Source: Podarcis gaigeae
Lineage: Eukaryota
Reading direction: 5' to 3' (one strand)
Assembly: GCA_964106915.2 (NCBI GenBank)
Contig: OZ066917.1
Length of the DNA: 64,000 nucleotides
The notes under the pieces were generated by a model. That model was not told the origin of the DNA, did not search any database, and saw only the letters and a list, made by a program, of their open reading frames with translations. Below, one piece after another: positions 12,121-57,700 of this stretch. Every line of letters begins with the position of its first letter. Position 1 is the stretch's first letter. The translations under genes were made by a program, and so were the position numbers.

Positions 12121-12256
12121 AGAGAGGCTGGCCAATGTGCTTCTTCTGCAACCAGGAATTGCGGAGGATCTGAAGACCATTAAAGAGAAGATGGGCCTTG
12201 ACAGCAAGAATGGGGCAGACTTCTTTCTGCTTTTTGACAACATTTTTGCAGAACAG
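12121..12256 (+). CDS. ACP6: ACP6 coding exon 6
   Basis: Acceptor TCCTTGACAG|A. Translates [45 protein letters not shown]. Donor CAG|GTATGC. 136 nt. Confidence 0.9.
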
Positions 12257-13221
12257 GTATGCTGTGTCTTCATAGGAACAAGCCTGTTTTCTTTAGCCAT
12301 CCAAGTTGATTCATGCAGGTCAGTGAGAGAAGCTGTGCTGAAGTAGAGCAGTGTGGCAGCCCAGGAGCTGATGGGCTCCAGCTCCCATTAGCCCAAGCCA
12401 GAATACCCCATGCCCAGGGGTGATGGGAGTTGTAGTCAAGCAATGTATGGAAGGCCACGTGTTCACCATTTCTGTGCTAGCAACTATTCAGCAGAGTAGC
12501 TCTTGTTGCAAATCGGGAAACCAAGACAGCTCTGGCAAGAGAGGAAATCATGTGTCTTCCTTCAACTCCCTCCTCAAACATCACATTTTTTTGTCTTTTG
12601 TGTTAATTGTTTTAACACTTCTCCTTTTTATCTTTCTCTCCATCCCCCCAAAATGTATTGCCTTTTACACTGGCAAAATAGATAAGCTCTTTCTTGCTGT
12701 CGTTGCTTATGAAAATCTCCAAAGTAGCTTGTAAAATTATTTAATCGACTGAATTTCTCTTAGATCTTACCTAGGACCTGATAACACAGAAGTAGGTTAC
12801 AAGAAGCAGTCAGTATGATATCAGGGAGGGGTTGGGCCCAATTCTGTAATTCCCTCCTTAGGGTGTATCTGTGCTCCCAATATTAGATTGATCCCCAGTG
12901 CATCATATGAACAGATAACACATCCTGAGTTGGACCTAGTAAGTGGTCCAAGGTGGGATATTGGCAAAGGCCTGCTACTCCACTTTATCTCAGGTTTGGC
13001 ACTAAAGATTAAACTGGATGTGGGAAAAGCTTGCATGCCGAGACATTTTAAGGGGTTACATCAGTTACAGCAGAGGGAATACTGAATACTGTATGCTGAA
13101 CATGACTATTACGGATGCTTAGGCTTTTAAGTGGCCAAGGATTGTTTTGTTGTTTTATCCTGAGATCAATAGATATAGAGTAGGCTAGAAATGTTGTAAT
13201 AGGAAAAATAATGCTCTAGCT

Positions 13222-21864: not shown

Positions 21865-21971
21865 TCACTGTTTTGCCACATGCAAGTTGCAATTTCATTA
21901 GCTTCTCCCTATGATATTCTCCAAACCACATGCTACCAGCCACAGCACACCTATACAGAATTGTTTCTTAC

Positions 21972-22232
21972 CCGAAAGATTGTTCATAGGTGGCAGGTTT
22001 GGGGAACGTGCTGGAGGAGAGTCATCATCTGAGGAAGCTACAGTCTTGATAGCATCATGGTAGAGTGGAGTAGAACTGGGCATTGCAAACTTGGACATCC
22101 GGGACATCATGATGGAGAGAGGATTTTGAGACAGAGTAGGCTCTGGGGGCATTGTGTATGGACTGCTAGAAGGAAGATTTCCAGGAAGAGTCACAGGAGC
22201 AGCCTGGCTAACCGTTGAAGGGGGTGCACCAC
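21972..22232 (-). CDS. BCL9: BCL9 coding exon 6
   Basis: Acceptor TTATTTAG|GT. Contains LSQNPLSIMMSRMSKFAMPSSTPLYHDAIKTVASSDDD. Donor G|GTAAGA. 261 nt. Confidence 0.94.
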
Positions 22233-25200: not shown

Positions 25201-25635
25201 CCTAGTAGCTACAGAAGGAACTGCCTCTAGCAGCAGAGTGTTCTGCTGAGAGAACTCAATTTACCCAACACACGATACACTAGTAATCGCTCCAAGTCTA
25301 CCCTGTTTCAACCTAGCCTGTATACAAAAGACTATGTTTCTAAGCTAGTGAGAGTAATCAGTTTGTGCATCCATCTCTTCATAGTTCAATTATGTCCATA
25401 CATCAACTAGTACTATGACAATATCTTTACAGGGTTGTGCCCAACCCTTTACAGTCGTGTGCCCAACACAAAGCAGTTTAGGAGCGGAAAGGTAACAAGC
25501 TAGCCTGCCACGTCTGGTGCATCAAGTTGTCAATAAAAGGAATCAGAGCAGAGTTTGTTTAAAGGAAAGGTAGCGCCTTACTGACTATAAAGATAGTGAA
25601 GAAAAAGGATGGTAGAGAAAGCGAGCACAACTGAC

Positions 25636-27868
25636 CTGATTCAACATTTCCCATCATGGCTGGTGAAGACATGGCAAGAGACGCTTTGTGGTTGGGGGGT
25701 ATTCCAGGACTCTGCAGTGGGGGCTTTGGAGATGAAGTCCATCCAGGAGAAGGTGCAGGGAGGGACGGAGACTTGAGATGGACAGGAGAAGCGGCAGCAG
25801 AGCCCATAACAGGAGGAGATTTGATTGAAGCAGCAGCTGCTGCAGTCGGCCCTGCGAGTATCCCTGCCAGCTGGGATGGAGTCTGGGGGGACTTGAGGTT
25901 CCCGGAGGGCGAACCCAGCATGGGAGACTGGACCTGGCGCATGGTGGGGGACTTCAGTGGATTTATGCCTGGAGAATGAACCTGGCTGGCACCAACGGAA
26001 ACATCCAAGGGCTTGCGTCCGAGGTTGCGTTGAACAGGAGGAGCTGTGTTGAGGCTGTTTGGGTTGCTGGAGGGATTCAGAGGTAGTGGTGGCATGTGGC
26101 TAAGCCGGTTGTTAGTCCTTTGGTCGGGCCCCATTTGTTCTCTGTGATTCCGGAGACCAACACCTGGGCCCTGAGACATAGGATGGAAAGGTCTCGGGCC
26201 CATTCCATAGTCCTGCTGGGGATGCTCACCAAATGGCATGGGCACCATTTTCTGCTGCGAGGGGAGTATCTCCGAGACACCTGGGCGCATTTTCATCATT
26301 TCCTCCGGGCCCACTCCAGCTTCCCTCATCTTCTGAGGTATCATTGGTGGATTGGAACTCATGTTGACATTCAGATTCACATCCCCCTTCATGCTACCAG
26401 GGCCCATCCCAAATTCCAAGTCCCTACCAGCTGCCATCTGAGGTGGCATCCCTTTGGGGAAGTCCCCCCTGGAGGGGCTCATGGACCCTTCAACCGGCAT
26501 ACGTGGGAAGATGGGGTTATTGCCGGGCTCCATGTGTCTTTGAGAGGGAATCATCCGGTTCATTTCCATGCCAGGCCTGATGCCTTCAATGCTCATGCCA
26601 GGGGGAAGTCCTAGCTGTTTTTCTGCCAGCTGCTGTTGAAAGATCTCCTCAGGCAGGCCCTGAGGATTGGGGAACCTCTCCCCTCGCCCAGGCCCACTGA
26701 ACACACCTTGCCCAGGAGGGAAGTTTCGGCCATCTGGCATTTTTGGCACATCTTCCGGCCAAGGGACACCTGAAAGCCCGGGTCTAGAAGTGGCGTTTGG
26801 GACATTGGGACCCTCTATGTCAGGGTTTATCATTCCAGCAAACCCAGGCAGCCGCATCTGACCACCAGGCACATTGGGATGGGGGGCCATGCCCCTTGGG
26901 GGCAGTGAATGGGACATAGTCATACTTTCAGGAAAGGGCTCTGGGCCCCCAGGACCCCAGCCCTCACCTGGGGTCATCTGGTATGGAGGTGGGGGGCCTC
27001 TGACCAATCCTCGAGGCCCATGCTGGTGAACCATCATGTCTTGTAAAGAACACTGCTGTACAACCTGCTCCTGCTTCCTCCTCTTTTCTTCGTAGAACTC
27101 CTGTTGCAACTTCAGCCAGGCAACCTGCTCAGGGGTCATATGATCCAGGTGCTCTGGTCCTATAGGACCAGCCTGAGAGTTTAAGGATGGTGGCCCAACT
27201 TCATCTGGTGAGAAGGGCATGTCTCGGTGCCCTGGAGGGCCAAAGGGAGCCCCTCCTTCTGTCCGGGGTCCTGGCCCTTTACCTAAACTTTGGGATTGAG
27301 CCATCAAGGCCTGTATTGGCCCTTCAGGCTTCTTTTGGGGACCATCCAGCACTCCAGAATTGGGCGGGGGAGGCCCAGCTTGGCCTCCAGTGAACTCCTT
27401 CTCATCTGGGAAAAGCATACGCTGAATATCTCGCAGAGTCTGCAGGGAACGTTCTCTATGCTCCAGCTGCTCCTGGGACAGTCCATCTGGATTTTCACCC
27501 ATATTTGGTGGGTCCCCACCAGATACCTGCTGGTTGGGACCTTTAGGGTCCGCAGTGGAACTGTTACTTCCTTGGGAAACTGGACTAACGGCTCTATTAC
27601 TGGGGGTTGAAGTTTGCCCAAATCCTTCAGTTTGTAGAGGGGTGGAGTTTGCAGGACTTCCTGCTGACATCACTTTACTTTCTAATCCAGGATTGTCCTG
27701 CTCAATAGGACACGGAGGGCCAGTAGCTTTGGGTGCTGGTGCCGGCACTGGAATGGGTGGAGTCTGCTGCATTTTGGCATTCTGGGGAGGAGTCTGCTCT
27801 TGAGAAGCAGGCAGATGAGATGGAGCTTGGGGCTTTGTATCATTTCGAAGTGGTGGAATCTGAGTGTT
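25636..27868 (-). CDS. BCL9: BCL9 large coding exon 5 (HD2 beta-catenin-binding domain, HD3)
   Basis: Acceptor TTCTTCAG|AAC. Contains GLSQEQLEHRERSLQTLRDIQRMLF (HD2) and MTPEQVAWLKLQQEFYEEKRRK (HD3). Donor G|GTCAGT. 2233 nt. Confidence 0.96.
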
Positions 27869-28052
27869 CTGAAGAAAAAGGAAGACAAGTTAGTAATTTC
27901 ACATGGCTCAAATGAAGCCTAGTTCTAGGGCAATAAGGAAGGCCAAGCTCTGAGTTCACCTTTCGCCAATCCTGCTTTAACCACTCTGTCAAGCCACTGG
28001 CAGCCTCACCCCTCCTGCCCACACTGTCTTCTCCATCTGTGAAGTTACTTAC

Positions 28053-29079: not shown

Positions 29080-31973
29080 CTGAAACGGAAGTAGTGGAGA
29101 GGTCTCAGTCTCAAGAAAGATAGCAAAATTCCATTCCCATCTTTCAGTAGCTCACTTAGTAGCACTTTCATTTTAGATACAGTACAATCACCCACCATAA
29201 GATTCATTTGTTCTGGCATTTATATAAGACAATTATTTCTTATGAATGCCCATCCTAATATTGATAGCTGGCATTTACAACTTCAGGCTTTTTCTCCCAT
29301 TTCCACCACAACTTCTACTATTACACTTTGTGTGATTTAAAATCCAGTCATTCATAGTATACTCTTGTACATTTGTCAATTTCCACACATCCACAAGGAA
29401 AACTCTTAAAAAGTATTTTGGCCTGAGGGCCACATTCATCTTTGGCCAATCCTCCAAGGTCTGCATGCCAACAGCAGGTATAGCAAACCTATACACTTTT
29501 AATGAAAACTTCCGTATGTGTGCGCACACAAAGGACGTGGTTTCACCCTTCGTCAGCTGATCCATGAAGAACCCCCCCCCCCCAAAAAAAACAGGAAAGG
29601 AGTGATTCTCCATCCTCATCAGGGTACCCTGCTTCACCCACCAAAATATTGTGCATGGTTCCTCCCCCCCCCCTTCACCATTGATGCCCAAAGTCATTGG
29701 GATCTTGGGGGCAGAGCACCGATCAGTCACAGCTGTTGTAAAAAAATCTGACTGGTTTCAAATCAGGAGTGTGTGTGGAATCCTCCACCAGCAAAGCTAC
29801 TGAACCTTCCACATTGTTCAGCTAGATAAAACACTTTCCCCCAGTTTGCCTCAAACTGAGATGGCCTGCCCATAGTTGTTTAGATGTTTTAGTTTAAGAC
29901 ATACTATAAATTCTACCAAGGTAAGGCTAACCTAGGACAATTGCTCCCACCTTGACACACCAGCAATGACAACAGCACACAGGAGATTGTTCTTAGAAGC
30001 TTTACACCACTTCATTGCCTTTCCCAAGAAATACACTAGAGTCAAATCCTAGAGTCTATTCAAAATCAGTACAAACCTGATGTGTAAGCAACATATGCAT
30101 AGGCCAGAGCATTTTGGCTGTATAGATTTTCTCACCATATTTAGTGTAATATTTTCACATTTAAATTGCTCTTACCCAACACATGAGACATGGGGGTTGG
30201 TTCAGAGGCTAAGTGAGATTCAAATGGTTTCCGAAACTTTAAGAAGTCCACACCACACAGTAATCAAGTAATAAAGTTTCAAGATCCACATATGGCGATA
30301 CAAAACCTATTTTTTTTTGCAAAACATCATAAGCAAAGTAAAATGAGAAACAAGTCATGTGTTGAAAAAAGTGCCGATGGGCAAAAAATGCCCTAATCTT
30401 CAGCTATGAACCCGTAATGATCAAAGCGCCCCAAACTCGAAGGTGCTGCGCAAAAAATAAATACACAACATAATCTCACCTGTAGGCTTGCAATCAAATA
30501 ACAGAAGGGAAAGCAAAAAGTAAAATAAAAGAGAAGAGGAGGAATTGGGGGGGGGGGCGCCAGATGCATGCTTCAGCTCACTTGAATTCAGCTAGTGGCC
30601 CCTGTGAATCTCTTGAGCCCAGCAGCCTCAGGACTGAGTAGAATTCAATCAAAGCTTGACACATTTGGGCTTATGTGGAGAGCACTGGCCACTATCACAC
30701 GAATTATGTTAGCCACTGAAGACAGTCCCAAGCACATGTGATTTACATAAACAGCACTTCCAGAAGTGCAACAACACTCGTAACATGAACAGTGCCTATG
30801 ATATTCCAAGCAGAACAGGACTTCTGAGACTGACAGATTGGAGCTGCATTCCTGTAGTCTAAGACACCATACAGTAACAACAGAAAGACTTTCCCTACCC
30901 CAATCAAAGCTATATTTCAAGTGGGTGGAAATGATGGTCAACAATTATAAGCTGTGAAAATATCTGACTGCTTAGAGACCAGCCTTACTGAGCTGGGATA
31001 TACAGGAACAAGCACTACTCTAGAGCAAAAATTCCTCTCTGGGGGCTAAGCTCCCCTTACTACTCCCATCGTATTGTGAAGTGGGCAAGGATACACAGCA
31101 TTAACCTAGTTCTTCCCAACCTATGAAACACAGACTATTTATCATCTGTCCTACTCCAAATTTTGTTTCACAAGCTATTCCTTTCCTTAAAGGCCTTCTC
31201 TGAGACAACTAATGTTCCTCTATTGAGGTTTTTAACCCTCTCTATCCCAAGAGGGTCTTAGTGGATTAACATATCTATGAAATTAACATGTCAACACAAA
31301 GAAAAAACAAAAATACCCACTTAAATATCCTGCACACAAACAACAGATTGTGTCGTTTTTGAGAACCAAAGCAAAACCCATTCTTTTAACACTTACAGAA
31401 ATACAGGCTCAGATTTGATGGCTGCTCCTTATGCGACATTACATAATTCACTAGAGATACCCAAGCACAGAATACACTCAGATCGTGTCAATTACGAATG
31501 GCACTTGGGCCTTTTTATAGTGTGGTGCTTGCATTTAAACCTATGGAAAAGACACCCTTTTCCTGAGAAAATTAGCCTTTTGCCTGCAGTGGAAGAAAGG
31601 CCCACCGCTAGGCACGTATCAAAACTGACCACAGTATGCTGTGGGGTTCGTGGGACCTGCCTTCTTATCAAGCATATCAAACAAAACACTCTTGAAAAGA
31701 CAAATTGTTTGCCTCTTTTTACACTTGAGGAACTATTAGTTTAAAAGGGGGTCACTGTGACAAGTTTCAGAACATGTGCTTTGGCAGGAAGCTACTTTTT
31801 CCAAGTCTTCCAATCCAATTGTCAAAAATCTTCCTTCATGCCAATATACAAAACTGACTCATTTTGGCTGGTACAATTTCTAGGGTTCAGAGCAAGTTAA
31901 AAAAAAAATCACAGAGGCTCTCAGTAAAAGCTGGCACCCACTCATATTTCTGCCCCTTCACATGTAGACATAC

Positions 31974-32287
31974 CTTTGATTTCAGATTCATCACTGGGAG
32001 TCCCAGCATCTCTTTGTTCAAATGAGTCCGCTGAAATGCTCCTCTCTCTCTTTCCTTTCCCTTTTGAACCATTGCCAGCCCCGTTCTTCAACCCCATGCT
32101 TCCTCCTTGTCCTGGGAGCACTTTTGGTGTGTGGCCCCCACTCTTGGGGTCGCAGGGAGAGGGCTGGGATTGGCCAGTTGAGCCCCCCTGTTTACCCTGG
32201 TTGGAGAATTTAGAGTCCAGCTGGGGGTTGCCAGATGGGGACATCACTGTAGGGGGACGGACCATCACCTCCTGCTTTGATTTGGGA
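31974..32287 (-). CDS. BCL9: BCL9 coding exon 2
   Basis: Acceptor TTTTCCACTAG|T. Translates SPKSKQEVMVRPPTVMSPSGNPQLDSKFSNQGK...KGKGKRERSISADSFEQRDAGTP. Donor G|GTATGT. 314 nt. Confidence 0.92.
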
Positions 32288-34261
32288 CTAGTGGAAAAGA
32301 AAGGTGGGGAAGAAGAGTAATTTGTAATAAAAGATATAAGAATGCCAACTTACGCAGCAGTAGCCACCAGCTCAGCTCATTTTACAGAGTGTGGCCAACA
32401 CCGGTAAGTTAAATTCATCCGCATGCATATTGTCCAGCAACTATCTAAAAAAATGCCTTATTATCCAGCTTGAGGTATTACTACTTAAGCAAACAGAGAA
32501 AGGCAGCAACTACCCAGATCCTAGGAACCAGTCAGTCACATGGGGATGTACCTCTGTCACTTCTGTCAATAAAGACAATGGTTTCTATGTACAAAGACAT
32601 GCCTCACACTAAGACCAGCACAAAGCAAATAAGCAGGGCACCATAAAGTTCACAATGCCACCCATCTGGATTCAAACAACACAGCTCAACTGAGGGGGGG
32701 GGATGTTTTTCCATGAAAGTTCAACTGAATTTTTACACAACTCTGAATTTCTATCCATTACCTGCCAGCGGAATGTAAGTTTTAAAAATGCTCACTTCAG
32801 TTACTTTCAACTGTTAGAGGCAAAAATTGCATCTTTCTGAAAACAAGTGCAAAAGAATATTGTAAAATAGCACTGAACTAGATTTCATCAGCACAGTAGA
32901 TGTGGGGGAAATATATTGAATAAAAAGAGCTGAATCTCAGAACTGATCCATAATTATAATCAGCATCCACAATGTATATGTAGCCAACTTGCATGAAGAG
33001 GAACATACCAGATCAGGGGTAGACCTCCCTGATAATGGAAGCTGGTCTGTAAGATCACTCAATTTCTTTGAGTCGTAGATTACTTGAAAGAGCTGTGAGA
33101 TGCACATGAGTGGCAGAAGATATGAATCAGCTCTCAGATACAATGTAATAAAAAAAACCCCCAGCAATAAAGATGAGAAGGAACCTACCCACCCCTTCCA
33201 CAATCCAATAATACACACTGGGTACAAATTTGCTTCTGGGCACAATTCTTTTGAAATGGATTAGGTCCAGAATACTTCAAGGATCCCCTCCACTCATACC
33301 ATTCCTAAGATCATAAGGAGAGACCCTTCTCTGTGTCCCATCGAAGGTAGAAGTGTAGCTGGATGAGATATGGGAGGACTTGCTCCATGTCAACAACCAG
33401 ATTACCATATTCATTTGGCCCATAGTTGGTCACTTCCTACACAGCTTTCCCCCCCAGTTACTGAATAACTGTTTTTTCCCCAGAAGGCTTTTATAATATG
33501 AGGCAGATAATGCTTTTTAATGATTTTTTAAACTGCTAACTCTGCCTCTTTTGCAATTATTTTCAACCATTTTCATGAAACTGGTTTTTCTATATTGTAA
33601 GTTATCCTAAGTGGCATGAAGTTTGGGGTATTAATGCTCTGATAAACTAATAATAATAATAATAATTAAGAGATCTGGTTACCTCAGGCAAAATAGCTAC
33701 AATTTCCATTCAGTTTTGTGTTCTAAGGATGCTTCTTTGCACTTCTACTTATTTGGGGGGGATGTTTTTGTTCCGTCTATACGAAGAATATGCTTGCCCC
33801 CTGAACACCAAGACAGAAGTGACATGGGAACACTTCCTCTATGTGCCAATATTTACCTTCCCCATAAAATGGAAGTGGAAGCACTGTGTGCTGTCAAGTG
33901 GAATGGTCAAAACTGTCACCCTCTCAAAGGCTGTTTTGTCAAATTAGAAGATTGAGCCAGAGATCCTCAATGGGGGCAAAAAACAACAAGAAAACACAAG
34001 CGACTACAAAATCAAGAACCTCAAAAGAGATTGCAAAAACTTGTAATTTCTTATGAAATATCATATAAAGGCAGATAGAACCAGCACATGAAGAGAATTC
34101 TCCGTAGCAGAATAAACTTGAATAGCACTCAGCAGATGAAACTCACATGACAGGGGGTTCCAATTAAAGTACAGAAGGCAAATAGCGATTCATGTAATAA
34201 TGCCACCAGAGAGACACACAGAGAGAGGGAGAATGAATATATATATATATATGATATTTAC

Positions 34262-38778: not shown

Positions 38779-41700
38779 CTGCCAAGTATACAAGGAATAA
38801 AAGAAGTGACTAAACTGTAGTCCAGATCCAGCACAGCAAACTGCAGAAGTTGCCCACCAACTCCTTTGACCTGGAGTAATGAGTGACTAGGGAAACCCAG
38901 ACAGATGGGCAGGGTATGAATAATAAATTATTATATTATTATAATATAAAGGACTCTGCCTGCTATTTAAGAGACTGATCTCTGAAGCACTTTATCTCCC
39001 CCTCTCAGTGCTGTGGAGCTCTGCCTTGGAAATAGGGGAAAGGGCTGTGTGCACGCTAGCATGTCGGAGAGTGTGCTCGGTGTGCACACTAAGTATGCAC
39101 AGGGCATTACCACGGCTGGCATGTGGCCCTCAAGACGGGTGGCTAACCAACAATGCAGCCCTCAGGTGAAAAATATATTGGCCACTGGATGTGCTATTTT
39201 CATTCAAAATCTTGGAGAAGATGCAGCTATATTAAGCCACTCTCTCTTATGAATCAAAATCCCTGGTTTGCGACAGGTTAAAATTACATCATGCAAACTT
39301 TGGAAGTTGCAGGTTTCCTTTATGGCAGACAAAGAATAAAGGATCTACAGCACACAAAGAGAAGAAATATTCTCTCCCACTCAGTGTACCTCTTTTCTCA
39401 GATGATTAAGAGAGTTTGAGTTGGGCAGAAGCAGCTGTTAAGAATACTGGATGATGAATGGCCAAGGGTTGATATCTCTGACATACAATGTCCTATGATA
39501 AAGATCTATAAGCAGAGACTTCAGTCAATAGTTCAATAAAAAATACATTATGACAGACACACACACACACACACACCCTGGTCTGCAAATGCTCAAAGTC
39601 CATGTTACACAGTTCCCATACAGTTCTTTAACATCCACAAAATATACCAATGAGGTACGTAGACTTGGAAGTGTAGTCTATATGATCTGTTTTCCAAGTA
39701 TGTGGCAGTTTAATTGCTTCTGCAACACAGTCTCCTTCAGAGGACATTAATACACATCTCCAATACTGACTTTTCAAGAATAAAGGGCTTTTAGAAGACC
39801 TATAAAAGAAAAATGATAGCAGAGGAATGTAAAGGTGGCAGCACACAGGGAAGAATGCAACAGGTTTCTCTCCATCTTGGCAGCTCACTATGCAGTTTCA
39901 ATGCAGAAGGTGTACACAACAGGTACTTTAAATCTAAAACTGTAATTTTGCCTGCTCCCACAAGATAGATATTCCATTTAAGGTATTCCATTTAAAAAAA
40001 AAGAATATGCAAGTTTTCAAGTTACAGAATTTGTCGCACCATGTAATCATAGCTTGTATGCAGTAGAGATGTTAGCTTGGTGAAAAATGCAAGTAATGTA
40101 GGGATCTGTGTGTTTCTTAACCATGCAACTGTGTGTTCCAGTTGTGCCTGGTTGGCAGGACGGTGCGGAGAAGAGAAAGCTGGAACCTTAAGATCCTAAT
40201 GGCACAATGGAACCAAGTCTACACAAAAGTAAGTCTGACTGAATCCAGTAGGGCTTATTCCCAGTTAAGTAGGACTAGGATTGCAGCCTAAATCCCCTAT
40301 GATGAGAGATATTGAAGAAATGTGCATATCAGGAATGCTTTGATTTCATTTCCTTGCAGTTCCCCCACCAAAAACCAGTCTCTCCCAAGGTTCAGGAATT
40401 GTGGGTGGAGGTCTTGAGGAGGAAGGAAAATCCCTGAAAATCAAGAGGAGGCACCTACTCCAAAGTAGAAAGATACCTCCACTCTTATTATGGGGCATTC
40501 CTTCCTCCTCAGCCTCCTCATCCCACAGCTTATTGCATTCAGCAGGGTAGGAAAGCCTGTTTCCTCTAAACCTGTTCCACAGGCTTTTCTCTGGATTCAT
40601 CCCACCACCCCTTTTCAATTTCTGTGCATTAACGTCAATGCTCCCCTTTAACTGGGAAACTGGAAAGAACATCAGATGTGATGCAAGCAATGGCCATTAC
40701 AGGGACAAGAATCAAGACTACTGGCTTGCACTGCTGTAGCTAGCATGTGATCCGATGCCCGAGAGTTAGAGCAGAGATAAATGAAGACCATGGCCAGGAT
40801 TTAAATCATTGAGAAGATTCATTCATTTATTTTAGAAATATCTATCTTGTGCCAATTACCATAACTTAAGGCTTTTGTTAACACTTGGCAACGATCTCAA
40901 CATTGCTCAGATACTTTGCACATATTTTCTTTATGATTTAAAATTTATAGAATTGATTTGTGAAGCACAATTGTCTGTATGTTGATGCAATGTAACTTTA
41001 AAAATTGAACAGTAAACAATATGCACAGACAATTCCATCATTCACATTTAAAAATCACTAAAAATAATTAAAGAGTACCTTGAGCTTAAAAAAATAATTC
41101 AAGTGAAGATGTTTTTGCCTGTTGAAGGATAAATACAAACAGGTTTTCAAAGCTAGTGGTTAGAACACCAATATAAATAAGATCAGTTGTCTGAACAGGT
41201 GGATAACTTTGACAGTTTCAGCCATGGTCTGCTTCAAACTGCCTGCCCTAGAGATAGATAAAATTTTGAGTCTTTGACATACTAGAGGCACTAGCCAACA
41301 CTTACTGTCCAATAGGCTGAGAATAGATGGGTGGACTCAACACCACCTATAAAAGGAAGTCCTTGGACATTCAACTAATCCCTGTGACTACAGTATTTAA
41401 AACAATTGCAATATCAAAAGAGGTAAATTATCTAATTAACAGATATAGTCTCTTGCCCTAGCTTTAAACATCAGCAGTTTCTTCGAAGTTTCAAGTTGAT
41501 GGTGAACAGTCTCCCACCCCACTGTTTTCACAGGTGTTTCTGCTGCTTGGATAGCCAGTCACTTATCTTACTGTAATGTACAGATGCTATGGTTGTGTTC
41601 AACAGCTTCCCGCAACTGCTACTGATTTAGTGCTAAAGATAAACAAAGGATACAAATTTTCAAGCTGGCTTCTGCAAGCATCCTGGGGGACTCTGTGGTT

Positions 41701-43684
41701 TGGACTTTACTACCTCTGCCAACCCTACCAATTTCCCAGTCTGCCATTTGAACTGACAGGGATCTGCAGTTCCTTCTGTGATTTGTGGGATCTGGGTGCG
41801 ATGAACCAGCATACCCAACACCCAAAACCCCTCCAACTGGAAGGGAGCCAACTTTTAGCCTGAGGGGTGTGTGATACTACACACCAGTTGTGCCTTGTAT
41901 CATTCTTCTGCTTGTACATAGTTTAGAGCACCCACGAAAGATGGGGGAAACAAAAGAGCCAAACAAATCTTATCGTTCACATTGTAGGACTGTCAGTCTG
42001 AATTCTCATCTACTTCCATATTCAGATGTTACATTCAATGACCAGACTAAGATCATTCTTTTAGTCCAGATGGATAATTTGCTATAAGGCACTTTAACAT
42101 GGATATTTAAGCAAATAAATTTGTGTGTTAAAGGTTCAGAGGCCCCAAACCTCAAAATAACAAAAGGAGTTCCTTATGCAAGGATATTTGACTTTCCTAA
42201 GAAGATATGGATATGAGACCCATACCAAAGATTAAGCCATATGGTAAGGACATGTACCCTCAAGGTAAATATTAACTAGCCTAACATCTGCTAAAGGAAA
42301 TACTGTCTTGAGAGCTACTGCTGAAGTTCTTCATCAAATCTTAAAACCCAATTATAAAACATTTTCAAATAACTAGCAGAATAAGCTGTGTTAAGACAAC
42401 ATTTGCACTGTTCCCTTTGTCAAAGGGTTCCAGTTTCTTCAGTAAGGAAACCTAACAGCAGAATGTTATCTTTGCAACCAGTAAGAGCACTACAGCTTCT
42501 TTAAATGCCATCCTACCCTCAAATACATTTACAATATATTTGGGGGAAAGTAGACTCAATATCCATCCCTTGCTTATTAGTGCTTTAAATGTTGAGAATA
42601 GCAGGATCAATTTCATATGGGGGTGGGGGAGAAAAGAATGATTTTCTCCCCCCCCCCCCCAGCTTAGAGTGGCTTATTGAAAGATCCTACAAGGTATTTT
42701 GAATAAACACTCTGAATTATACATTAATGAAGAGGTACAAAATTTAGCTGAAGTTCAGTGAAATCACATTCTTCCCGAGACTGAAAATTTGTCCATCAAC
42801 AGTCAACCTCCTAAAATTCTGTATCAAAAGTGTGCTGTGATAACTATTACACATTATGTTGAAGTCTTCTCACTGCTATAGCTGGAAGATGTTGCACACA
42901 AGTTCTTGGCCAAGAATAAGCAATTTCAATCCATACAAAACAGACGTGACAATAGCTCCAACTTGGTAACAAGACATATAAATACCTTGTGGTCTAGTGT
43001 GCCTGTTTAAATTACAGGTGAACAGCAGTAAAAGAGCAGTGTAAGAATGTCTGAAAATCCGCAAGTAGAATTTGAAATCAGAAAGTTCACAATATGCTTC
43101 CTTCATACCTATAGCTGATATGTTAATTATAAGCAGTACCATAATAAATATCCTCTTTTGGATTATGTGAGAACTGACTTCTTAAACTGGCCTAATAGTG
43201 GGCTTTCCTGTAACCGTAAGAACAAGCTATATTCTAAAACTGGGATGGAGAACCTATTGCTCTTCAGATGCTGCTGGCACGGCCAATGGTCATGGCTGGT
43301 CCAACAAAAGTTTTGAAAGGCCACAGGTTGCCCATCCTTGATTAAAATTAAAAGAGCAAGTATGTAACACTGGACTGGTTTGCATGACACTGTAATCTGA
43401 AATATGGCTTAGCAGGGACCATGCAAGCATGCAGACTCCCAGAGGGGATCTTGCAGGCACTTTACTGCTCCCCAGTCTCATGGCATGTTGAGCTAAGCCA
43501 AAGTTTGGCTTAGTGTGTCACCTGAACCCAGGCTCATGGTTATATTTTCTCCTCATTATCAACGAGCTGGAGCCAGCAGCAGATTTCTGCTTAACTCAGT
43601 ATGGCACAGGAGCAAAAAGGACCAGGGAACAGCAAATTGGGGTGTGAGCTCCTATACATTCACACAATCCCAGTACACCATAGT

Positions 43685-43941
43685 CAAAACAAAAAAAATT
43701 CCTTCCAGTAGCACCTTAAAGACCAACTAAGTCAGTTCTTGGTATGAGCTTTCGTGTGCATGCACGTTTCTTCAGATACCTTTTTTTTTTTTTTTGATGG
43801 ACTTCCATTTCCGTATCTGAAGAAGTGTGCATGCACACGAAAGCTCATACCAAGAACTGACTTAGTTAGTCTTTAAGGTGCTACTGGAAGGAATTTTTTT
43901 TGTTTTAACTATGGCAGACCAACACGGCTACCTATCTGTAA
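43685..43941. mobile_element. Penelope-like element ends in inverted orientation, carrying hammerhead ribozyme motifs
   Basis: Inverted arms of about 100 bp around a T-rich spacer. Direct repeat CCAGTACACCATAGT at 43670-43684 and 43942-43956. CTGAAGA...GAAA cores on both strands. Confidence 0.75.
43813..43850 (+). ncRNA. Minimal type I hammerhead ribozyme motif (PLE-associated)
   Basis: GTAT-CTGAAGA-A-GTGTG(CATG)CACAC-GAAA-GC-TC-ATAC. Stem I is GUAU/AUAC, stem II is intact, and a palindromic AGCU stands in for helix III. Confidence 0.65.
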
Positions 43942-44430
43942 CCAGTACACCATAGTTTGGCTTACCGAATTGTTGTGCAAACCAAGCCACTGTCTCACAT
44001 AAGAACATACAAAGCTGCTTTATATCAATTCAAACTACTGGTTCACTAGGCAGTGCCATCTATTACAACTGAAAGACACACTATATCCTCAAGGAGAAAG
44101 TCTTTCCCTGGTTATTTTAAATCTGGAGATGCTACAGGCAGAACCTGGGGTCTTCTACATGTACCACCGGGTACAATGCAAGCTTTGGTAACAGAAAAAC
44201 CAGCCAAATGTGCATCCCCCATTTGTGGTACTAACTCCACAGGCACTAGTGAGCGACACATTAGAGCACACCATGTTTCTCAGCAAATATCAATGTTATC
44301 CTAAAACACAGCAACTGAAGACAAAACACAGTGCATTTCCAACAGATTAGCATGCAAATGAAGGTTCTTTGGAAACAGAGAACTACAAGTCAAGATATAA
44401 AATTCTATAAGGAAGAAAAGTGTATCTTAC

Positions 44431-44517
44431 CATGATCGGAATATTAAACAAAGTACAGCATCAGTTCTGGGTATCTTTGAGCAGTTTGTCTCACAAACAC
44501 GTCCAGCATTTAGTTGT
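44431..44517 (-). other. BCL9: Putative BCL9 5'UTR exon (87 nt)
   Basis: Acceptor CCTGTATCTTTTTCTCCTAG| and donor ATG|GTAAGA. Confidence 0.65.
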
Positions 44518-47099
44518 CTAGGAGAAAAAGATACAGGAATGTAGTAGGTATCTCTACTGAACATAAAAGCTATGACTCACTACAGATGTTTAGAGCTGTA
44601 TAAACAGTGGAGTCAAAGTTTCTTTTCACAGCAGCTGAATCCTGAAGTATCAATATTCTGCTTATGGTTCTGTGATCAAGAAAACCGATTTCGTAACTGG
44701 GACTAACTTGTGCACATTAACCAAGAAAGCCCAGGTTAACTTTGTCATACTCATGTAGTAAAGATCAAGAAGATAGACTTTTACTTTTATTTTTTGGTAA
44801 GGAATTTAAGGGAAGTGATTTTAGATTCCTAGACAACAGCACTAAGTTTCAGCTGCCAAGCCCTGGGCTACACTGTTTTCAAAGCCCCACCTTCAGCTAC
44901 TAGATGTTCTGCCATTATCATTTCTCATTTCTAAGCTTTTTGTACATAAGTTTTATTCACAACCACAGGAAAACTTGCTTTGGCTAAAATAAAATGCAAG
45001 CACTCTCACTGTAAAGGGAAGCAATGTAATCTAAGCAACATTTCATGCTGTAATCTTGGCCACACGGGTATCTAAGCCTCACATATGCCCTGGTTCTGAT
45101 AGTATGGCTAAACCATGGTTTGGCTCTTAGGGCTCTGCCCTGGGTTCACAGACTCTCCTCTCTCTGGGGCTCCAATTATCTCCTCCACTTTCCAGTTTAT
45201 GGAAACCACAAAAGAAGAATATTGCTTAAAGTGGGGAGAGAAGAAAACACCCATGTGCAACCCGAAGTCTAGAAATCTTAGCTGGTCTTGCTAGTCAACT
45301 TGGTCACCAAGACTTTTCTCCTCTTCTCTATGCAAGGTCAAGAAAAATCCCCTGCTCCTCAGACCTGCAAATATAAATGTAGCTCAGGTGTGGGGCTGTT
45401 CCTGCACTTTGGCCTTCAGCCCCAGCCCAGATTTGCAGAAATCAGGGATGATTCCTACAGTTGTAGAAGCCCAAGATGCACACAGCACCATCAGTAGTCC
45501 GGCCTAACCTCTAGAATGATCCTCCTTCCCCCTGATAGCCACTGTGGAGAAGTTGTTTGATTCAGAGTAGAATTGCGACTCTGTTCAACAACCCACCTCA
45601 ATCAGCCAATACCTGTTTCTCCACTTAACTATATCTGTGAAACCATGTAGGGTTAGGGAAATAAAGTGGGATATAAATACAAAATAGATATCTAGAGCTT
45701 GTTCATGCACTAAGAGCACTTTGGAAGCCAAGGGACAAAGAGACAAACCCAAATAATCCTTTCTAGATATGGAGAAGGGTGCAATAATGTTCCCTTTTCC
45801 TTACTCTGCTCCATGTAATTCTATAGTCCAGCATAACTGTGGAGACATATCCATGTTCCACCAGTAGGGCCAAGAGATTTATTATCCTCCGCAGAGGATG
45901 ATGGACCATTCAACATGAGCAGTGATGTTATGGCCCCCTATAGGCAGTTTCTTTCAAGAGATCTCAAGATACGGTAGTTTCAATCAGCACCCCCCATCCT
46001 CCCAAAAAACCAAAAAGACTAGTAACTTCTGCTAGGAAAAAATAATTCAGCTCCTGGAAAGAGCTTTCTCAAAACATTTTCACAAAAGGAACATGCCTTC
46101 AAAGGGAGTGATCCTGGAGCTATCGTAGAAAAGGTCCTCCCCACCAGTCTCTTAAAAGAGGGCCTGTTCAACAAGTCAACTATCACCCAGAAAACCTTAA
46201 ACTACCACAAAATAATTATGAAGGAGGCTTCAACTGTACCTCCTTCAACCAAACAAGCCAACACTCCTCTACATCTTAATCCTCTTCACTGAAAGGAATA
46301 TTTATTTATTTTTAACTTAACTTATAGACCACAATAAAAAAATACCTAAGAGGTCCACACAGTGGAAACTGAATTCCTCTCATGAGGGACACACAAGTAA
46401 ATGAAAGGGAAACTGGCCTCTCTCACTGACCATCCCTTTAAAATAGATAAAATAATATAAAATAATACCCTCTACTTTTCAAAATCCTGACAGCTTCATA
46501 CAAGCCCATATCAAAAAGTCATGGGTAGACCCACTCTGAGCACCATCACCTCCAGCAGGCAAACATCAGCTCTCACCAAAAGGTCTCTTACACAGACCAG
46601 AAAACAAACCCCTTCTCTTCCAACACATAGGTAAGACTGACACATTACTTAACTAACTAGTCAGCAGTCAATTGACTATGTATTATTTAACCATGGTCAA
46701 ATATTTTCAATATTCCACAAAACAATGATGCTTGAAAATTTGGCCAGCTGCTTATTTAGCACAGCTGTCTTTTTTTGGGGGGGGGGGGAATTTTGTTTAA
46801 TAGTTGCTACTATATGGTTTTATTTCTGTCTTCATTTTTTTGAAGTACTGCAACTTCAGGTTGGCTGTTCCAGGATAAAGGCCCAAGAGAACTTTTCCGT
46901 GAATTGCACGCAATTGTAAAAATGTTGCCTAATAACATTAAGTTATACTTTACATGAACAGGTCCTTACTAAAGCTGGTATAAAAAGTGGCAGCCAAGAT
47001 CCATTTCACACAGCAAACCAAAATGACACGTATTCCCACACTAACCGGCCAGTGCCTTGAGAATTCTGCTGAAGCCCTTCCAGGTGCCCCCATCAGTGG

Positions 47100-47805
47100 T
47101 GAAGGCATGTTAGGGGTCAGTGGGAAAGGGATTGAAAAGAAAGCTGCCAATACTGTGGTGCCTTTCTGTGGTGTAACCACATTTGGATAACTCTGTACAA
47201 CTCTCGTCGCTGCATCTCAAGGAAGATATTGTAGAGTTGGGCAAGGTGAAGAAAAGAGCCACAAAAATTACCAGAGTGCTACAGCAAGACACCTATAAGG
47301 AACAGCTACAACATTTGAACCCAGTTGGTAGTGGAGTGGTGGAAGAGTAAGGCAGGCATGATAAAAGTGTAATAAAATTAAGCACCAAGTAGAGGAAGTG
47401 AATAGAGAGAAGTTTTTCCTTCTTCTCTCATAATACTAAAAGCAAGGGTCATCCAATGAAGCTGAGAGATTCAGGACAGACAAAGAAAAGGACTTCTTCA
47501 CAAAGAACAGAGTTAAACTTTGGAATTCACTGCAACAAGATGTATTAATGACTACCAATTTAGAGTTTTAATTAGTTTTATCTGCCATGAATTTGTCTCC
47601 CAAGGGTTACTAATCATGATGGCTACTTAGGAGCTCCAGGATCAGAGGCAGCAAGCCACTGAATACCAGTATCAGAAGAGCGGAGAGTGCTTTTCTGTTC
47701 ATATCCTACTTTTGGGACTCTGGGAGGCATTTAGTTGGCCACTGTGAGAAATCAGATGCTGGATTAGACAGGCCTTTGAACTAAAGGGCTCTTCTTCTGT
47801 TCTTA
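47100..47805 (+). mobile_element. Degenerate CR1 LINE 3' portion
   Basis: Remnants of the PHLxYxVQ..PHLK.DIVELGKV.KRATK RT C-terminus. Ends with a TTCTTCTGTTCTT tail. Confidence 0.7.
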
Positions 47806-50251
47806 CTCAATCACAAAGGAGTTTGCTTTTTCAGCATTGGCACCCCATTTATGGAATGTTGTCCCTAAAGTGGTTTGGCATGGCACCTATGCTGCACTCT
47901 TTTCAGCACCAGGCAAAAGTTTTACTCAGCCAGGCATTTAAATTGGCTTTATTTCTAGTTCTGCTTTTAGGGGTTCTATTTGATATCATCTTCTAGTTGT
48001 CTCTCATACTACAATATAATTTGATTATACACTGCCTTAATATCCAACCAGGATAAAGGATGGTATTTAAATGTGTCCATATGTATGTATGTATACTTCT
48101 CTTAAATAATTAGATTAATATTCAGTTATGTATTATCCACATGCTTGTCCTATAGTTCAGACTGCAATACTATGGTCTCTTGGAGGGCATCTGAGGGGCC
48201 TTAGGATAGATCAGATCTACCTCTCCAACATGAGAGCGAGAGATCCAATGTTGAGGCCTTCTTATTTAACTGCAATGAGTCTTCCAGCATTCTGGCCCAA
48301 CCAACATCCAACACTGGATGGTCCAAGAAGGAATATGGAGGGAAGGAGCTGGGATCCTGAGTCCTCCCAGTCTCCTGTCACACACCCAAACCAGGTTTAT
48401 TTATTTAAGTAACACTTCTGAACATGTTTAAATCTCTTCTTCCACTCCCTCTAACAAAAATGGAAAGGGAAATGTCAAAACAGAAAAACACAGCAGGAAA
48501 TGGACGGAAGAACCCAAAGGCCTTCCACCACTCTCGCTTTCATCCTGCTAGCTCAACTCGCAGGATTTTCAATTAAGGCAGTTGACTCTCCTTTGGATTT
48601 TGCTCCTCCCCTAACATTAGGGTTGCAGTCTTAATCACTAAAGCAAATCAATGTATCTTCCAGATACAGCAAGTTAAAGGATTCTTCTCTATGTAAATGA
48701 AGAAATGATTTGCTCATTTATCAGATATGAATACTTGCTCGAAACACAAGCTTATGTTCACCTGGTGAAAATAAGTTTCCCTTGTCTGTCCAGTTACTAT
48801 CAAATCTTGTATTTTTTTGTTTTTAGGATGGTGGAGCTAGCCCAAGGCAGAATGAAACAGAAAGGAGCAATACTGGAAAAAAGAAGAAAAGGAAAAAAAA
48901 TGCCCAGTGTGCAGATTCCCACACTTAGGCTGCCATCCCTAGACTGCTGCTGGGGAGTAAAGGCCTTTGAATGCAATGGGATTTACTTCTGAGTAGATAT
49001 TACAAGACTGCACTGTCTTGTGCAAGACTCAAACTGTTAGGAGAGTTGATTGTAAGACACAACCTAAATTGAATGGTCTCAGTATAGATAAAAAAAAAAA
49101 ACTAAAGCATGCAAAATTTACACATTGTGACAACGTCAATCAAAGGAGGCCTGGTTGTAATAATAAACCACTGAAGATAATATTCTAGTTGTAAATCAAC
49201 GAAGTATACTCATCAGATTTAGGAAATATATCAAGTTGTATATGCCTTGTTCCTTGCTGATTTAAATCAATTTACTCTGTTACTATGTCAGGAAATTAAC
49301 TGGAAGCTCTTGTAGCTCACATGGCTTCCAATTAGTAACCTGGCACAATTTAAGGTTGTTAGTAACCTGGCACAATTACCTACGAAGCAAAAAATAGTAT
49401 GCAGCCAGGTTATTTAATGGAACACATCCACCCACACAAGTCTTCCCAACATTTAGGATAATCATCAGATCCCCTGCTCCATGTCCTTTCCATTCAGATC
49501 CATGGATGGGAGGATGATTGGTGGGGATAGGACAGGGCCTTTTCAGAAGTGGTGTCAAGGCTATATAATTACCTTCCCCAGGAAAACTAGTTGGCTCACA
49601 CTCTCATAATCTTTAGATAGATGATCGATATCTTATTTTAACCTGGTTTTTGAAATCTTTTAACTTTGCATCCTGCTGCCACAAATGATTTATTGATGGG
49701 TTTTAATACTATTTTATTACAATACTTTATGTTTTTAATATATTGTAAGCTCCTGGGGGGGCTCTTTTAACCCAAAACATGAGATATAAATATTCAAATA
49801 TAAACAACTTGCACACAAAAATCAAATGCAAAGAACACAAATCCAATTCCCAAGCTTGGAGCTTATGAAGAAGTGGGAGATTTGTCTCAGCAGCTGCAGA
49901 GTGCTTTGGAGATGTTCTCAGGCCCCTTCCACGAATCTTTTAAGGCCTCTCCTTAGCTCTAAGCAAGGGACCCCATCACTTGAAGCAAGGGCATGGTGAT
50001 AATGTTTGGAAGCCAGAACTTTTTGGGTGGCCACACAAAATTCATATGCCCCTGACAAACTGAACTCCTTTGTTTTTGAAATTAGAAGCCTCAAACTTGT
50101 TGATTACTGAAGTATCATTTTTGTTCTAAAAAGATTAATGCTTACACATACTTGTCAACTATTTAACCAATCACTTTTTAAAGGTCAAGGGGACAACTAT
50201 GATAATGAGATAGCCTATAGTATGCTGTCAGATGAAAGCACAGTAGGCTGT

Positions 50252-52899: not shown

Positions 52900-54720
52900 C
52901 CCGCCCCCCTTTTCCCAGACTCAAGGTTTCTCTCCCCCCCCCCCCCCGGGCCGTTTGTTCTTCCCCTCATGCGATGGACACGCCTCTTCCCTCCGGCCTC
53001 CTCCACGGCTCTCCTTCCAACCCGCCCCCCCCCCGCCCGTCCGCCTCGGGCGACTACTCGGAGCCGCCCCCACCCCCGCCTCGCTTTGCCAATCGCCGAC
53101 CCCTCCCGCCTCTTTCCCTCCCGCCCGCGCCCCCACCTCACGCTCCCCGCGCCCGCCCGCGCCAGGTTTTTCGACCAGCCCCCAAACTCCGAAACTTTCC
53201 CCCGAACAGGCAGGCGGGAGGGCGGTTACCCGGTCCTCTCGCCGCGTCGCCCCCCCCCCCACCAGCACCACCTCAACACACGCGCGCGCACAGCCCGCCT
53301 CCCCACGGCCCGCAGTTTCCACGGGTGCCGCTGGCACCATGCGGAGGAGCCTCCTGCCCGCCTCCCTCCGCACGCTCACCGCTCTTGCCCACCAAGGGCG
53401 GAGGGGCCTGGCCCGGCCGGGGGGCACCTCTCAGCCCCGGGCAGGAGGCGGCGGCGGCGGCGCAGCGTCTCCCCCCGGCGACGGCGAACTCGCTCCTTTC
53501 CCGCAAACACACACAGGCTCCATTGTCCGCCAGCCAGCCAGCCTCCCCCCTCCTCCTTCTCCTCCTCCCCCTCTCCCACATGGTACCGCCCATCGCCCCT
53601 CGGCCTCCCTCCTACTCTTGCGCGCCCCCCCCCCCCGTCCGCTCCCCGCGAATGAAGCAGCCTATCGCGCGCGCACTTCCCCCAACCCCCCCGGCCCACC
53701 CAATCAATGGAACGTCCCCTCCTCACTCACGGGCAGACTTTGACTTCTCCAAGCCATCAGGGCCGCCTCGCCTCCCCAGCAACGGGAATGGTAGTGTCCC
53801 GATGGAGAGATGGGGGGGGGCTAGATCCCCCCCTTTCCTCTCTCTCGGAATGGTATCAACTGATTCCTTAAAGAGACAGGCCTTGAATGCATGGGTCCTT
53901 CCTCCCCTGTAAAGCAGCACCGCCCTCACCTCCCTCCATTCATCCTGGCACCGCCCCCGCAATTAGCATAGGCCAGCCCCATACCTCAAGGTAGTTTTCT
54001 TTCCGCCGCCTCTTCCCTCTTAAAGACGCAGCCACCCAATGGCACTTCTTAAAGCGACATGCTGCCCTTTAAAAAAAATATTCTTTTCCCCCCACCACAC
54101 ACACACACCCCGCAAAGCCATCTCCACCAGGAACTCCTCGGAGCCAGCCTGGAATCTCGGCACGTTTATTTCAAGGCATCAGAAGGCATAGAAGTGTCTC
54201 TGTGGCAATGCGAGGGGGAGGCACACGTCCCAAGCCTAAGCCACACCCAGGCAGGGCGCGCACACACACAAAAACACACACACGGACGCTCTGCACACTT
54301 CCCACACCTCAGGGCCCCTCGTCTCCCAGGTACGGCAGCCGCACCGCACGCTGCAAGAGCACACACAACACCTCGCCGCGCTGAGATGCGTAAGCCTGAA
54401 GCAGGCTCTTACCAAAATCAAGAGACAGAGCGAGTGAGGCAGGGAGTCGGGCTGCAGCGCAGCACAGGGCGAACACACGTTCTCCTCCCGCTTCCACTTG
54501 CCCCCCCCCCCCCAAAAAATAGCAGACACTGATTTAAAGAGCATGTCTGCACCATCCATCTCAATTGCAGGCGCACAAATTGGATTTTGCAGAATTAAAA
54601 GCCTAGCTCTCTGGCCGGGAGGTCGGGGTCGTTGTATTAATTCAGGAGATGCATTCCATCTCGGCGATCGGGCGCCCCCCCGAATCTGATCGGCTCCCAG
54701 ATTTATTCTCTCCTTCCAAC
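52900..54720 (-). promoter_or_regulatory. BCL9: CpG island / BCL9 promoter with putative first exon at about 53380-53590
   Basis: Very high GC and CpG. Minus-strand donor GCG|GTGAGC at 53380/53379. CCAAT boxes at about 53700 and 54036. A more distal first exon may exist beyond the window. Confidence 0.65.
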
Positions 54721-57700
54721 CTCACACGCCCGCTCCCCCGTCTTGTGTGCCCTATTACATAAACCCTGCGGGCTATCAACCAAACCAAACGCATCACACG
54801 CTTTAATGTTGCTAGGTATACTCCAGATCCATTAAAATCTATGGAATTGTGGTCACTGGTATCGATAGGTATGTGGATTGCACCCGTATGACACTTCGCT
54901 GGCAAAACAGACATAAAAAAGCCAAAAGGCGGCGGGGGAAACATGTTCATATTGATTTAATACAGCTCCTCTTGGCCTGTGGATTGTGGCTAGCTACAGA
55001 TATCCACAAACCACAGTGGTTATAATGAATTTGCAGGGATTAGCTTCCAGCATTTTTAATTTCCACACGTCTTTACAATTAAACGGCAATGAGATGAAAT
55101 GAAAATTTGTGCCTCCTTTTCTTGTCTCTAGGAGGCAGGAGACTTAACCCTCTCCACCATATACTCTTACTAAAGTTCAATTCTCAAGTTTAACCCCTAA
55201 CATATTTCCTCCTGTTTCCTTTCCTCACCCTCACATTCGAGTGGGAATTTTGCACCTTACATTTGCCCATCCCCTCTCAAACCCACCCCCACAACAAAGA
55301 GATGGAAAACAGAATTGGCACTAACTTTTGTGAATATAGCTTCCCATTTTGAGCATAATGGAATACAGGAGGCAAATCCACATTGTCTCCTTCGTTGTAT
55401 TTTGAACTGGAGGCACCAACCAATAGTAACAGAAACAGCCAGTTCTTCAGTTCCCTTTGTAGCCGAAATTCACTGGGGCTATCATGGGCACCACAGTGGA
55501 GGATGGGGAAAGATGTGTCTGTAAGTCATGTTTCTGAAGTACACAACAAGCACTGAATGTGAACATGGAAAGTGGTAATTTAGCTTCCTAAGAACTTTGG
55601 TTTCCACTTAAAACAAAAAACAAGTTACTAGCCCTTATGGTTGCATAAATGAATACACAGTGCCTGACACACGCAGCCAAGAAAACCGAAGTGTGTGGGA
55701 CATGGGTGAGAGGGAGAGGTAGCTCTGAACTGCTTTTAATGGCTATAGTGCATGAGGATATGTATTTAAGCATCGATTCTTTCACATACTTAAAAAAACA
55801 GCAAAAGTGTGTTCTCATTGTGAGCACTCTATCATGTACACACAGAAACCAAGCCCAAACATGCAGATCTGTTGTACCAATAAGATTTCGGGGGGCAGTT
55901 TCAACTTTCCACAGTACAATTTAAAGCCCTTTGAAAACTTCCCAAACCAGTTTGCCCATAGACCATGGTGTATGTGTTTACCACAGGCTATGCCAGCTCC
56001 ACAGTGCCACTTCCAAGCCTCTGAGAAGTTATCACCTGTACGCATTTTATATTTCATAAGGTCTCATAGAAGGTTTTTGGTTTTTTAAAGTAACTTGCAT
56101 GCTGAGCAGATAGAGCGCATCTACCCATGACCCACCCACTCACCCAAGAACCTGTGCCCATTGGTGGAGAAGGAAATAAATGCACAAATAGGCTAAGTAA
56201 ATGATCCTATCATAAACGGATAAAGAGAACAAAGTGATATGCATTAGGACCAAGACTAAAATATCTCATAACAAAATACACATCTTTATGGAAGGTTGAT
56301 ATGTGGTTTTCTAAATATGTTTCGTAAACATCTGAAAGGCCCTGCAAATATTATTGTGCAGGGCATAAATAGGAGGCTGTCTTTCAGAAAGCACAGGTTA
56401 AGAATCTGTTGCAATAATGATAATATTTAGTACTTGTGTTGCACTTTATAATGTTCCAAGCACTCCATGTACATTGTGATTCTTGTTACACTCCTCGAAA
56501 GTAGGTCAGCATTATTACACCCATATTGCAGATACAATTTCCATATCAGTTGCCTGTATCCACCCACTAAGTTTGCAGCTGGGGCAACCTCTTTGCACAG
56601 CTCACACTCAAAGACACTATTGGATAGCAGATCTCCTAAAATAATTTTATTATTATTAATTATTATTTTTATTTAGTTTGCTAGTTGCCTTACAAAGACA
56701 GCCTGGAGGCAACATACTAGAAATCTAAAACAAAAAAAGTTTTTTTAAAAACACACAGACACACATAAAGAATTAAGATTATAATATTTAAAAGCATATC
56801 AACTTCATTTATTTAAAATGGGATTAGATATTTTCATGGGAGGCAGGTCCTTGAACAAGCACTAGCCACAATTACTAAATGAAGCTTCCCAATTCAGAGA
56901 CAAAATTCCTTTGAATATCAGTTCTTGGAGGGTAGGCAAACATCAAGAGAACTTTTGCCTGAATGCCCAGAACTGTCTGGTTGACTACAGTTGGAAAAAG
57001 AATGCTGTACTAGAAAGACCCTTGCGTCTTTCCAGCAGGACTCCTGCATTCTTAAAACCAGCACAACAAGCAAGGTTTATATGCTACTTTTTAAAGAAGC
57101 ACTTTTAAAAAATGGTGTTCTCTATCCTCAGGCTAAAGAGGTGCATTCCCCCACCTAGTTCCCAATTCATTTTGCTGCATGTGTAGGGCTTTTTCAGTGC
57201 TGGCACCCCAACTCTGGAGTTCACATGATCTCAGAGAGGTTTGCCAGATTCAAGCACTGCACTTTTTAGTGCCAGATGAAGGCCTTTTCATCTGCCCAGG
57301 CATTTTAGAAGTTTATAATTGCTGTTTGATCTAACAGTTTTAAATCCTTTTTGCCTCTGGTTAATTTTGGTTTTATTGTTCTGCCCTTTACAGTTATTCG
57401 GTGGCTTTATGCTATTATTATATTTCCATCTGGTGGCAATGTAATCACTAATTTACCATTAGATATTCGGCCAAACTTATACAGTTATTACACCAGGAGG
57501 ACACACATGACCATAATGCCACAAACCAGTTCCTTGTTAGTTCACCACTGTCTTTTCGTTTTCAAAAGCGATTTCAGTGTGGTACTGTTCAATTAGCTGA
57601 TTTATTTTTATAAACAATAACAGTGAGAGGTTTTTGTTATTGCAGTTTTGGCACATGTTCAGGTTTCTGATGATGCAAAAGCTAACTTCACAAGAGTGTT

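Follow-up and report, generated by a model that had tools for sequence, protein, structure and literature searches.

The hairpin found in the window, a stretch of 64,000 nucleotides at G000:C8:66092001-66156000 in a genome of 1.51 Gb, is in all probability a stub with two arms, left by a Neptune-type Penelope-like element (PLE) and likely primed from both ends on one uncleaved RNA; its two hammerhead motifs would be passengers that pairing between the arms is predicted to silence. As such it is an ordinary dead insertion, with a layout that has already been published for PLEs. The unit is a 257-bp insertion (43685-43941) in the BCL9 region, framed by 15-bp direct repeats and composed of a short and a long arm, only the long one being provided with a tail (Table 1). 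Self-comparison of the window delimits an inverted repeat of 102 bp (43678-43779 / 43813-43914, 96% identity), beyond which the right arm of the unit continues to 43941. The first-pass annotation had placed a head-to-head pair of hammerheads at 43741..43850: its coordinates and letters are correct, but its extent falls short of the unit as a whole.

Table 1. Features of the insertion and of its host gene; positions are those of the window, and element positions (+) are explained in the text
Feature	Position	Strand	Remarks
Large BCL9 coding exon	25559..27889	-	Pfam PF11502 (25559-27886), E 2e-18; sets the host strand
Target-site duplication, copy 1 (15 bp)	43670..43684	+	Last 7 nt also match element +99..+105
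Short arm, element +4..+98, tail-less, BCL9-sense, with the damaged hammerhead inside	43685..43779	-	98% to the end of long copy L094
Damaged minimal hammerhead (broken stem II), BCL9-sense	43741..43780	-	Substitutions at 43766-43767
Spacer	43780..43812	-	18-nt piece of the element 5' coding region, 13 extra A and single junction bases
Minimal hammerhead motif, intact, cleavage predicted after C43846	43813..43850	+	11,465 exact core copies
Long arm, element +4..+132, tail including the likely reading-frame start, BCL9-antisense	43813..43941	+	97% to L094 over 133 nt
Target-site duplication, copy 2	43942..43956	+	
CpG island, likely BCL9 promoter	53001..55000	.	CpG observed/expected 0.84 and 0.72

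Positions in the element are counted from the A of a TCAGT motif (+1), which stands 30 nt behind a TATA-like box. The element piece in the spacer, at 43794-43811, corresponds to about +167..+184 and is adjoined by the extra A. The stub itself contains no ORF. A 2,172-nt contig of run X9 (organism F; record 26) tracks 43512-43684 and diverges precisely where the direct repeat stops, a behaviour to be expected of an empty site, and one contig of run X3 (organism A, second sample) reaches 20 nt into the element. This read mapping covered the left flank; runs X4 and X6 yielded no contig spanning the insertion point and are uninformative. The window contains two further imperfect inverted repeats, at 43385-43520 and 40397-40529, which probably belong to other, older families of short repeats.

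Location of BCL9 on the minus strand, as initially proposed, is supported by the Pfam PF11502 match. Three more stretches (31942-32349, 21898-22251 and 19267-20424), which we take to be further BCL9 exons, gave no Pfam hit. Because the unit lies between the most upstream of the recognised coding exons (32349) and the CpG island at 53-55 kb, we infer an insertion in a 5' BCL9 intron. Another CpG island is found at 2-3 kb, together with exon-like frames on the plus strand (~2200-12400), arranged tail to tail with BCL9; these frames resemble ACP6 and gave no database hit.

The hammerhead read in the plus arm by the first-pass annotation withstands re-reading of the sequence in its letters, stems and predicted cut: stem I (43813-16/43847-50) encloses a core box (43817-23), a bulged A, stem II (43825-29/43834-38), the GAAA box (43839-42) and an AGCU palindrome. 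Both copies in the window display the core boxes CUGANGA and GAAA and a palindromic remnant of helix III. The 30-nt core matches the window twice, exactly at 43817-43846 on the plus strand and with two mismatches at 43746-43775 on the minus strand (0/100 shuffles). The two substitutions that had been said to disrupt stem II of the minus arm are equally confirmed, as 43766 and 43767 break two base-proximal pairs, and the G10.1-C11.1 closure of helix II, present in the plus copy, is thereby absent from the minus copy. The fifth stem-I pair of the minus arm relies on a junction base that is absent from the parent element. A hammerhead search, which the first-pass annotation had recommended, gave a negative answer: no Rfam hammerhead covariance model is found among 24 matches obtained with E up to 10 over positions 40000-48000. 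Two other identities were rejected. For a microRNA precursor, the best Rfam score was 62.8 bits vs a cut-off of 90 and matches were with generic hairpins only; a non-LTR retrozyme would need head-to-tail monomers on one strand, whereas the arms here are head-to-head on opposite strands. A covariation search over one variant pattern yielded eight mutants, all single-site, in a family that is young (0.7% divergence per site).

These motifs closely resemble the minimal type I hammerheads of metazoan PLEs (PMC4209133), with which they share both core boxes, a helix I of 4-5 bp, an unpaired base before helix II, a G-C pair at the base of helix II, a palindromic helix III remnant and an occurrence in opposite-strand pairs, already noted by that source. 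They differ from them by a helix II of 5 bp, compared to 7-8 bp, and by the loss of two base-proximal pairs in the left copy. Minimal PLE hammerheads are described as inactive as monomers in vitro (PMC4209133), and the activity of a PLE hammerhead needed the protein of the element (PMC11167929). As a separate observation, stem II and its loop (43825-43838) form a perfect 14-nt palindrome, and two pairs of arms in our sample are joined through such a palindrome; the ribozyme hairpin may double as joining homology between arms.

That the motifs are minimal hammerheads of the Penelope type, as first suggested, is corroborated by the presence in the genome of a parent element bearing the same hammerhead. 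One parent copy (L093) carries a single ORF of 813 aa with Pfam matches to RVT_1 (E 4.8e-12) and to a C-terminal GIY-YIG domain (E 2.4e-05). A CX4CxxC linker occurs upstream of EN in 6/6 long frames, and the hammerhead lies ~190 nt behind the stop in all six long copies examined, one of which has core changes; longer copies carry their GIY-YIG frame ahead of the hammerhead, in a survey of 5,299 candidates of which 150 were scored. The arms of the window align at 96-98% with the stretch that follows the stop codon in long copies. Judged from its ORF combining RT and GIY-YIG, its pLTR hammerhead, the inverted truncated copy, the one-sided tail and the TSD, the parent is an EN+ PLE. It would be of Neptune type on the strength of one linker motif, shared with Nematis: a CX2-5CxxC linker between RT and EN is a mark of Neptune and Nematis and, according to PMC8557442, is absent from Penelope/Poseidon. 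Common to the parent frame and the Neptune clade of PMC8557442 are, besides this linker, an RT with a C-terminal GIY-YIG and, putatively, two cysteines between GIY and YIG, a CxxC standing between the counterparts of these two motifs in the parent translation. The difference lies in the target, which is no microsatellite here, and the putative placement has to reckon with Nematis having the linker too.

Exact copies genome-wide number 11,465 for the 30-nt core, 14,009 for the downstream anchor, 8,058 for the tail and 3,759 for a motif spanning the start with a reach of 12 nt upstream. Arms were sampled as the first 100 exact anchor matches, on C1 up to 5.145 Mb, to which exact-core loci up to 6.25 Mb were added; the resulting 121 loci (414,820 bases) thus represent a single 6-Mb stretch of C1, with some of the pairs included on account of an exact core. 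A head-to-head mate accompanies 62 of the 100 anchor arms and a tail-to-tail mate three. The combination of a long and a short arm is found in 49/54 sampled pairs (P 6e-13), and the outer ends of sampled arms fall into two groups, at about +90..+101 (about +97) and +130..+134 (about +132). A direct repeat of 10-17 bp flanks 40/49 long-plus-short pairs (9 dropped), its length being 12-13 bp in 28. In other copies, too, the spacer sequence comes after the tail; a longer motif that takes in its element piece has 118 copies, and a jump back to the 5' end of the element soon follows in most of 20 loci read. The tailed arm is on the left in 35/49 pairs over C1 0-6.25 Mb, but this strand preference was discarded as local or due to chance given 3,992 vs 4,066 genome-wide and 17 vs 19 in the next 4 Mb.

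Other arrangements were also encountered. Head-to-tail tandems of ~183-189 nt (L194/L195, L201 and others of L189-L208) appear to result from template jumps that leave the RNA at its 5' end and land on 3' ends at varying places within the 5' coding region, and same-strand tandems such as L194/L195 and L201 could be copies able to form hammerhead dimers. One insertion (L029) holds three tandem 75-nt copies of +4..+78, while a large head-to-head insertion (L095, G000:C21:424500-431500), with arms of 2.3 kb and 1.0 kb, splits a LINE-like RT frame.

Two-armed stubs would arise as follows. The RNA would start at +1, with the TATA-like box 30 nt upstream; both ends of a staggered DNA cut would prime reverse transcription on one uncleaved element RNA, each end at one of two internal start sites and with a few bases of homology, and each cDNA would then run off the 5' end of the RNA. 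At the BCL9 locus, one cDNA would have switched to a piece of element RNA bearing an A tail, and only then would the two cDNAs have been joined. The four differences between the arms, the stem-II pair included, would be later changes or copying errors without effect on BCL9. Site +50, a diagnostic position with a roughly 50:50 distribution, is the same in both arms of 40/41 pairs, which points to one template; site +59 is invariant (45/45 pairs), and private changes outnumber changes shared by the arms 28 to 1. Two unrelated RNA templates per pair, suggested by differences among the top hits that merely reflect the ordering of hits by similarity to the query, are ruled out by the agreement at these two sites. 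Agreement of the arms is also compatible with a pair of RNAs transcribed from a single source locus, or with conversion inside the hairpin at an early stage. A head-to-head pair at G000:C17:4258958-4259024, both arms of which share a rare stem-II variant, is a further sign of a single template.

Arm 5' ends fall within -5..+10 in 41/100 cases, and 49/115 arms start at +2 or +4, with no upstream exon in common. A spliced upstream exon at the arm 5' ends was thus rejected, 72 arms ending near +1 having no common upstream sequence, a result limited to the 5' end of arms. Only 3/100 arms end at the ribozyme cleavage site, no more than in neighbouring bins, and this lack of a pile-up led us to reject ribozyme-cleaved RNA as the template. 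An extra G before +4 in 18/27 arms (P 9e-5), counted by eye and with many of the G belonging to the end of the opposite arm, is a mere hint of a cap-derived base. At the outer junctions, homology averages 1.6-1.7 nt vs 0.4-0.5 for shuffled controls (mappable junctions, 32 and 30 of 40), and the short arm of the BCL9 locus shares 7 nt with its target.

In a Poseidon element, cutting and extension affected both strands, the tail lay between two start sites and the template was mainly uncleaved RNA (PMC11167929), and an inverted truncated copy with a tail on one end and a TSD is a published layout (PMC8557442, PMC3846280). Compared to published inverted-pLTR insertions of EN+ PLEs (PMC8557442 Fig. 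2; Pen2a_Av, PMC3846280), the BCL9 unit has in common head-to-head 5'-truncated copies, a TSD, a tail of 30-40 bp at one end, a hammerhead and TATA/Inr-like motifs in the pLTR, and a reading frame that begins from pLTR and tail; it differs in that no coding body lies between the arms, both arms begin at the same base and the spacer is a jumped 5'-coding fragment. The likeness extends to PAc, the Poseidon of Anolis carolinensis, whose tail is delimited by two fixed RT start points, whose hammerhead lies near the ORF start and for which there is no sign of cleaved RNA as template (PMC11167929). Unlike the parent element, Poseidon is without the linker motif, and the ORF of PAc starts in stem II, vs a likely start in the tail here; the slight homology between primer and template seen here contrasts with PMC11167929, which reports no homology in vitro between the cut DNA and the RNA start site. 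In a literature search covering few subscription journals, we found no paper applying twin priming to the inverted ends of Penelope elements.

Two other origins of the pairs have to be weighed against two-ended priming. One is that the unit spreads whole, as a non-autonomous mini-element similar to a MITE or a retrozyme; short hairpins of this kind, flanked by target-site duplications, exist in the thousands and might suggest this, yet we find it scarcely credible, as inner junctions and spacers differ in all 54 pairs and arms range from tens to >1,000 bases. Such variable junctions and arm lengths are those expected of one-off products of a parent element. The other is fold-back, proposed for rotifer Penelope elements (PMC3846280), in which the inverted arm results from self-priming on the antisense template or first cDNA. 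It would account for a diagnostic base common to the arms in 40/41 pairs and for the two pairs that overlap through the 14-nt stem-II palindrome. However, the tail-less short arm exceeds its partner by 10 nt or more on the 5' side in 20/49 pairs, and the long arm does so in 11/49, so that neither arm always served as the template of the other, and neither contains the other; both outer ends are at two fixed sites; and the junction at the BCL9 locus holds a jumped fragment that is not palindromic. We therefore regard fold-back as improbable and retain priming from both cut ends on a single RNA.

What the hammerheads can do in such a stub is predicted from folding. For the complete minus-strand RNA the predicted folding energy is -190 kcal/mol (z -22), and prefixes that end just past the core have a pair probability of 0.0 for helices I and II. 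Freeing the core costs 38.5 kcal/mol on the minus strand and 41.5 kcal/mol on the plus strand, which has the intact copy. As the antisense arm is transcribed first on either strand, the ribozyme is predicted to lie inside a duplex of ~100 bp, and both hammerheads would be locked in pairing with the opposite arm and hence silenced. Moreover, since the partner arm is on the other strand, helix III is not completed in cis.

The first-pass annotation had raised the possibility that the stem-II changes of the BCL9-sense copy were favoured, an intact ribozyme being liable to cut the pre-mRNA. The damaged arm is indeed the BCL9-sense one, two broken stem-II pairs are rare (0/120 sampled arms), and a preprint reports non-LTR retrozymes to be depleted from Xenopus introns (10.64898/2026.07.22.740005). 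But the sense core is predicted to be trapped in the duplex and is deprived of a cis partner, monomers being inactive in vitro (PMC4209133); half of 100 sampled arms lack an intact ribozyme anyway; intact sense cores adjoin phosphorylase, DUF3517, SOCS and ARMH4 exons; and given one damaged arm, its being the sense one is a coin toss. Selection against self-cleavage of BCL9 pre-mRNA is thus unsupported and, to us, very improbable, and chance is the likely cause of the damage. Among the 100 anchor arms, 50 ribozymes are intact, 36 truncated (some old arms perhaps trimmed by the aligner) and 14 mutated. The single stem-II changes have 58 and 39 copies genome-wide; for the double change 0.20 are expected and one other copy exists in the genome (P 0.18), which is within chance. 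With only two copies in the genome, the damaged stem II was also rejected as a subfamily trait. The other carrier, at G000:C17:32835217 (L032), is again a head-to-head pair, with the double change in a short arm near the junction and a 12-bp TSD.

Intact cores near coding exons are oriented in sense in nine cases and antisense in ten, over 18 loci whose intron position we deduced; eight of these loci have Pfam support (one weak) and ten are tentatively named, many of the 18 having been picked by their intact core. These figures show tolerance, not rates. Exon calling by codon score is noisy, a Pfam hit being obtained in 10/30 candidates from other loci, two of them below the curated cut-off. 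One intact sense copy lies ~400 nt from a phosphorylase exon, and its antisense mate is without core. For unpaired copies near exons the count is two sense and six antisense (P 0.29), a skew that leans towards purging of unpaired sense copies. Antisense bias is general for intronic retroelements.

The BCL9 locus itself is of small importance, as one among thousands of dead stubs. A broader reading, which we hold to be rather unlikely, is that the head-to-head layout acts as a built-in silencer: with their antisense arm always transcribed first, paired stubs would be unable to cut a host pre-mRNA and hence tolerated in introns, and unpaired or tandem sense copies, which may dimerise or be activated by the protein of the element, would be purged. 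Were this true, >11,000 young copies would provide a natural test of in vivo cleavage by minimal PLE hammerheads, and if introns proved depleted of unpaired sense copies but not of pairs, this would be evidence, at the level of a whole copy population, for in vivo cutting by these weak ribozymes. The family is above all a dense record of Penelope-like insertion. The mechanism of PLE insertion is still described as undefined (PMC8557442), and the copies surveyed here suggest that a single uncleaved RNA is primed from both ends of the cut and copied up to its transcription start, where the cDNAs run off, as opposed to the self-priming proposed in the literature.
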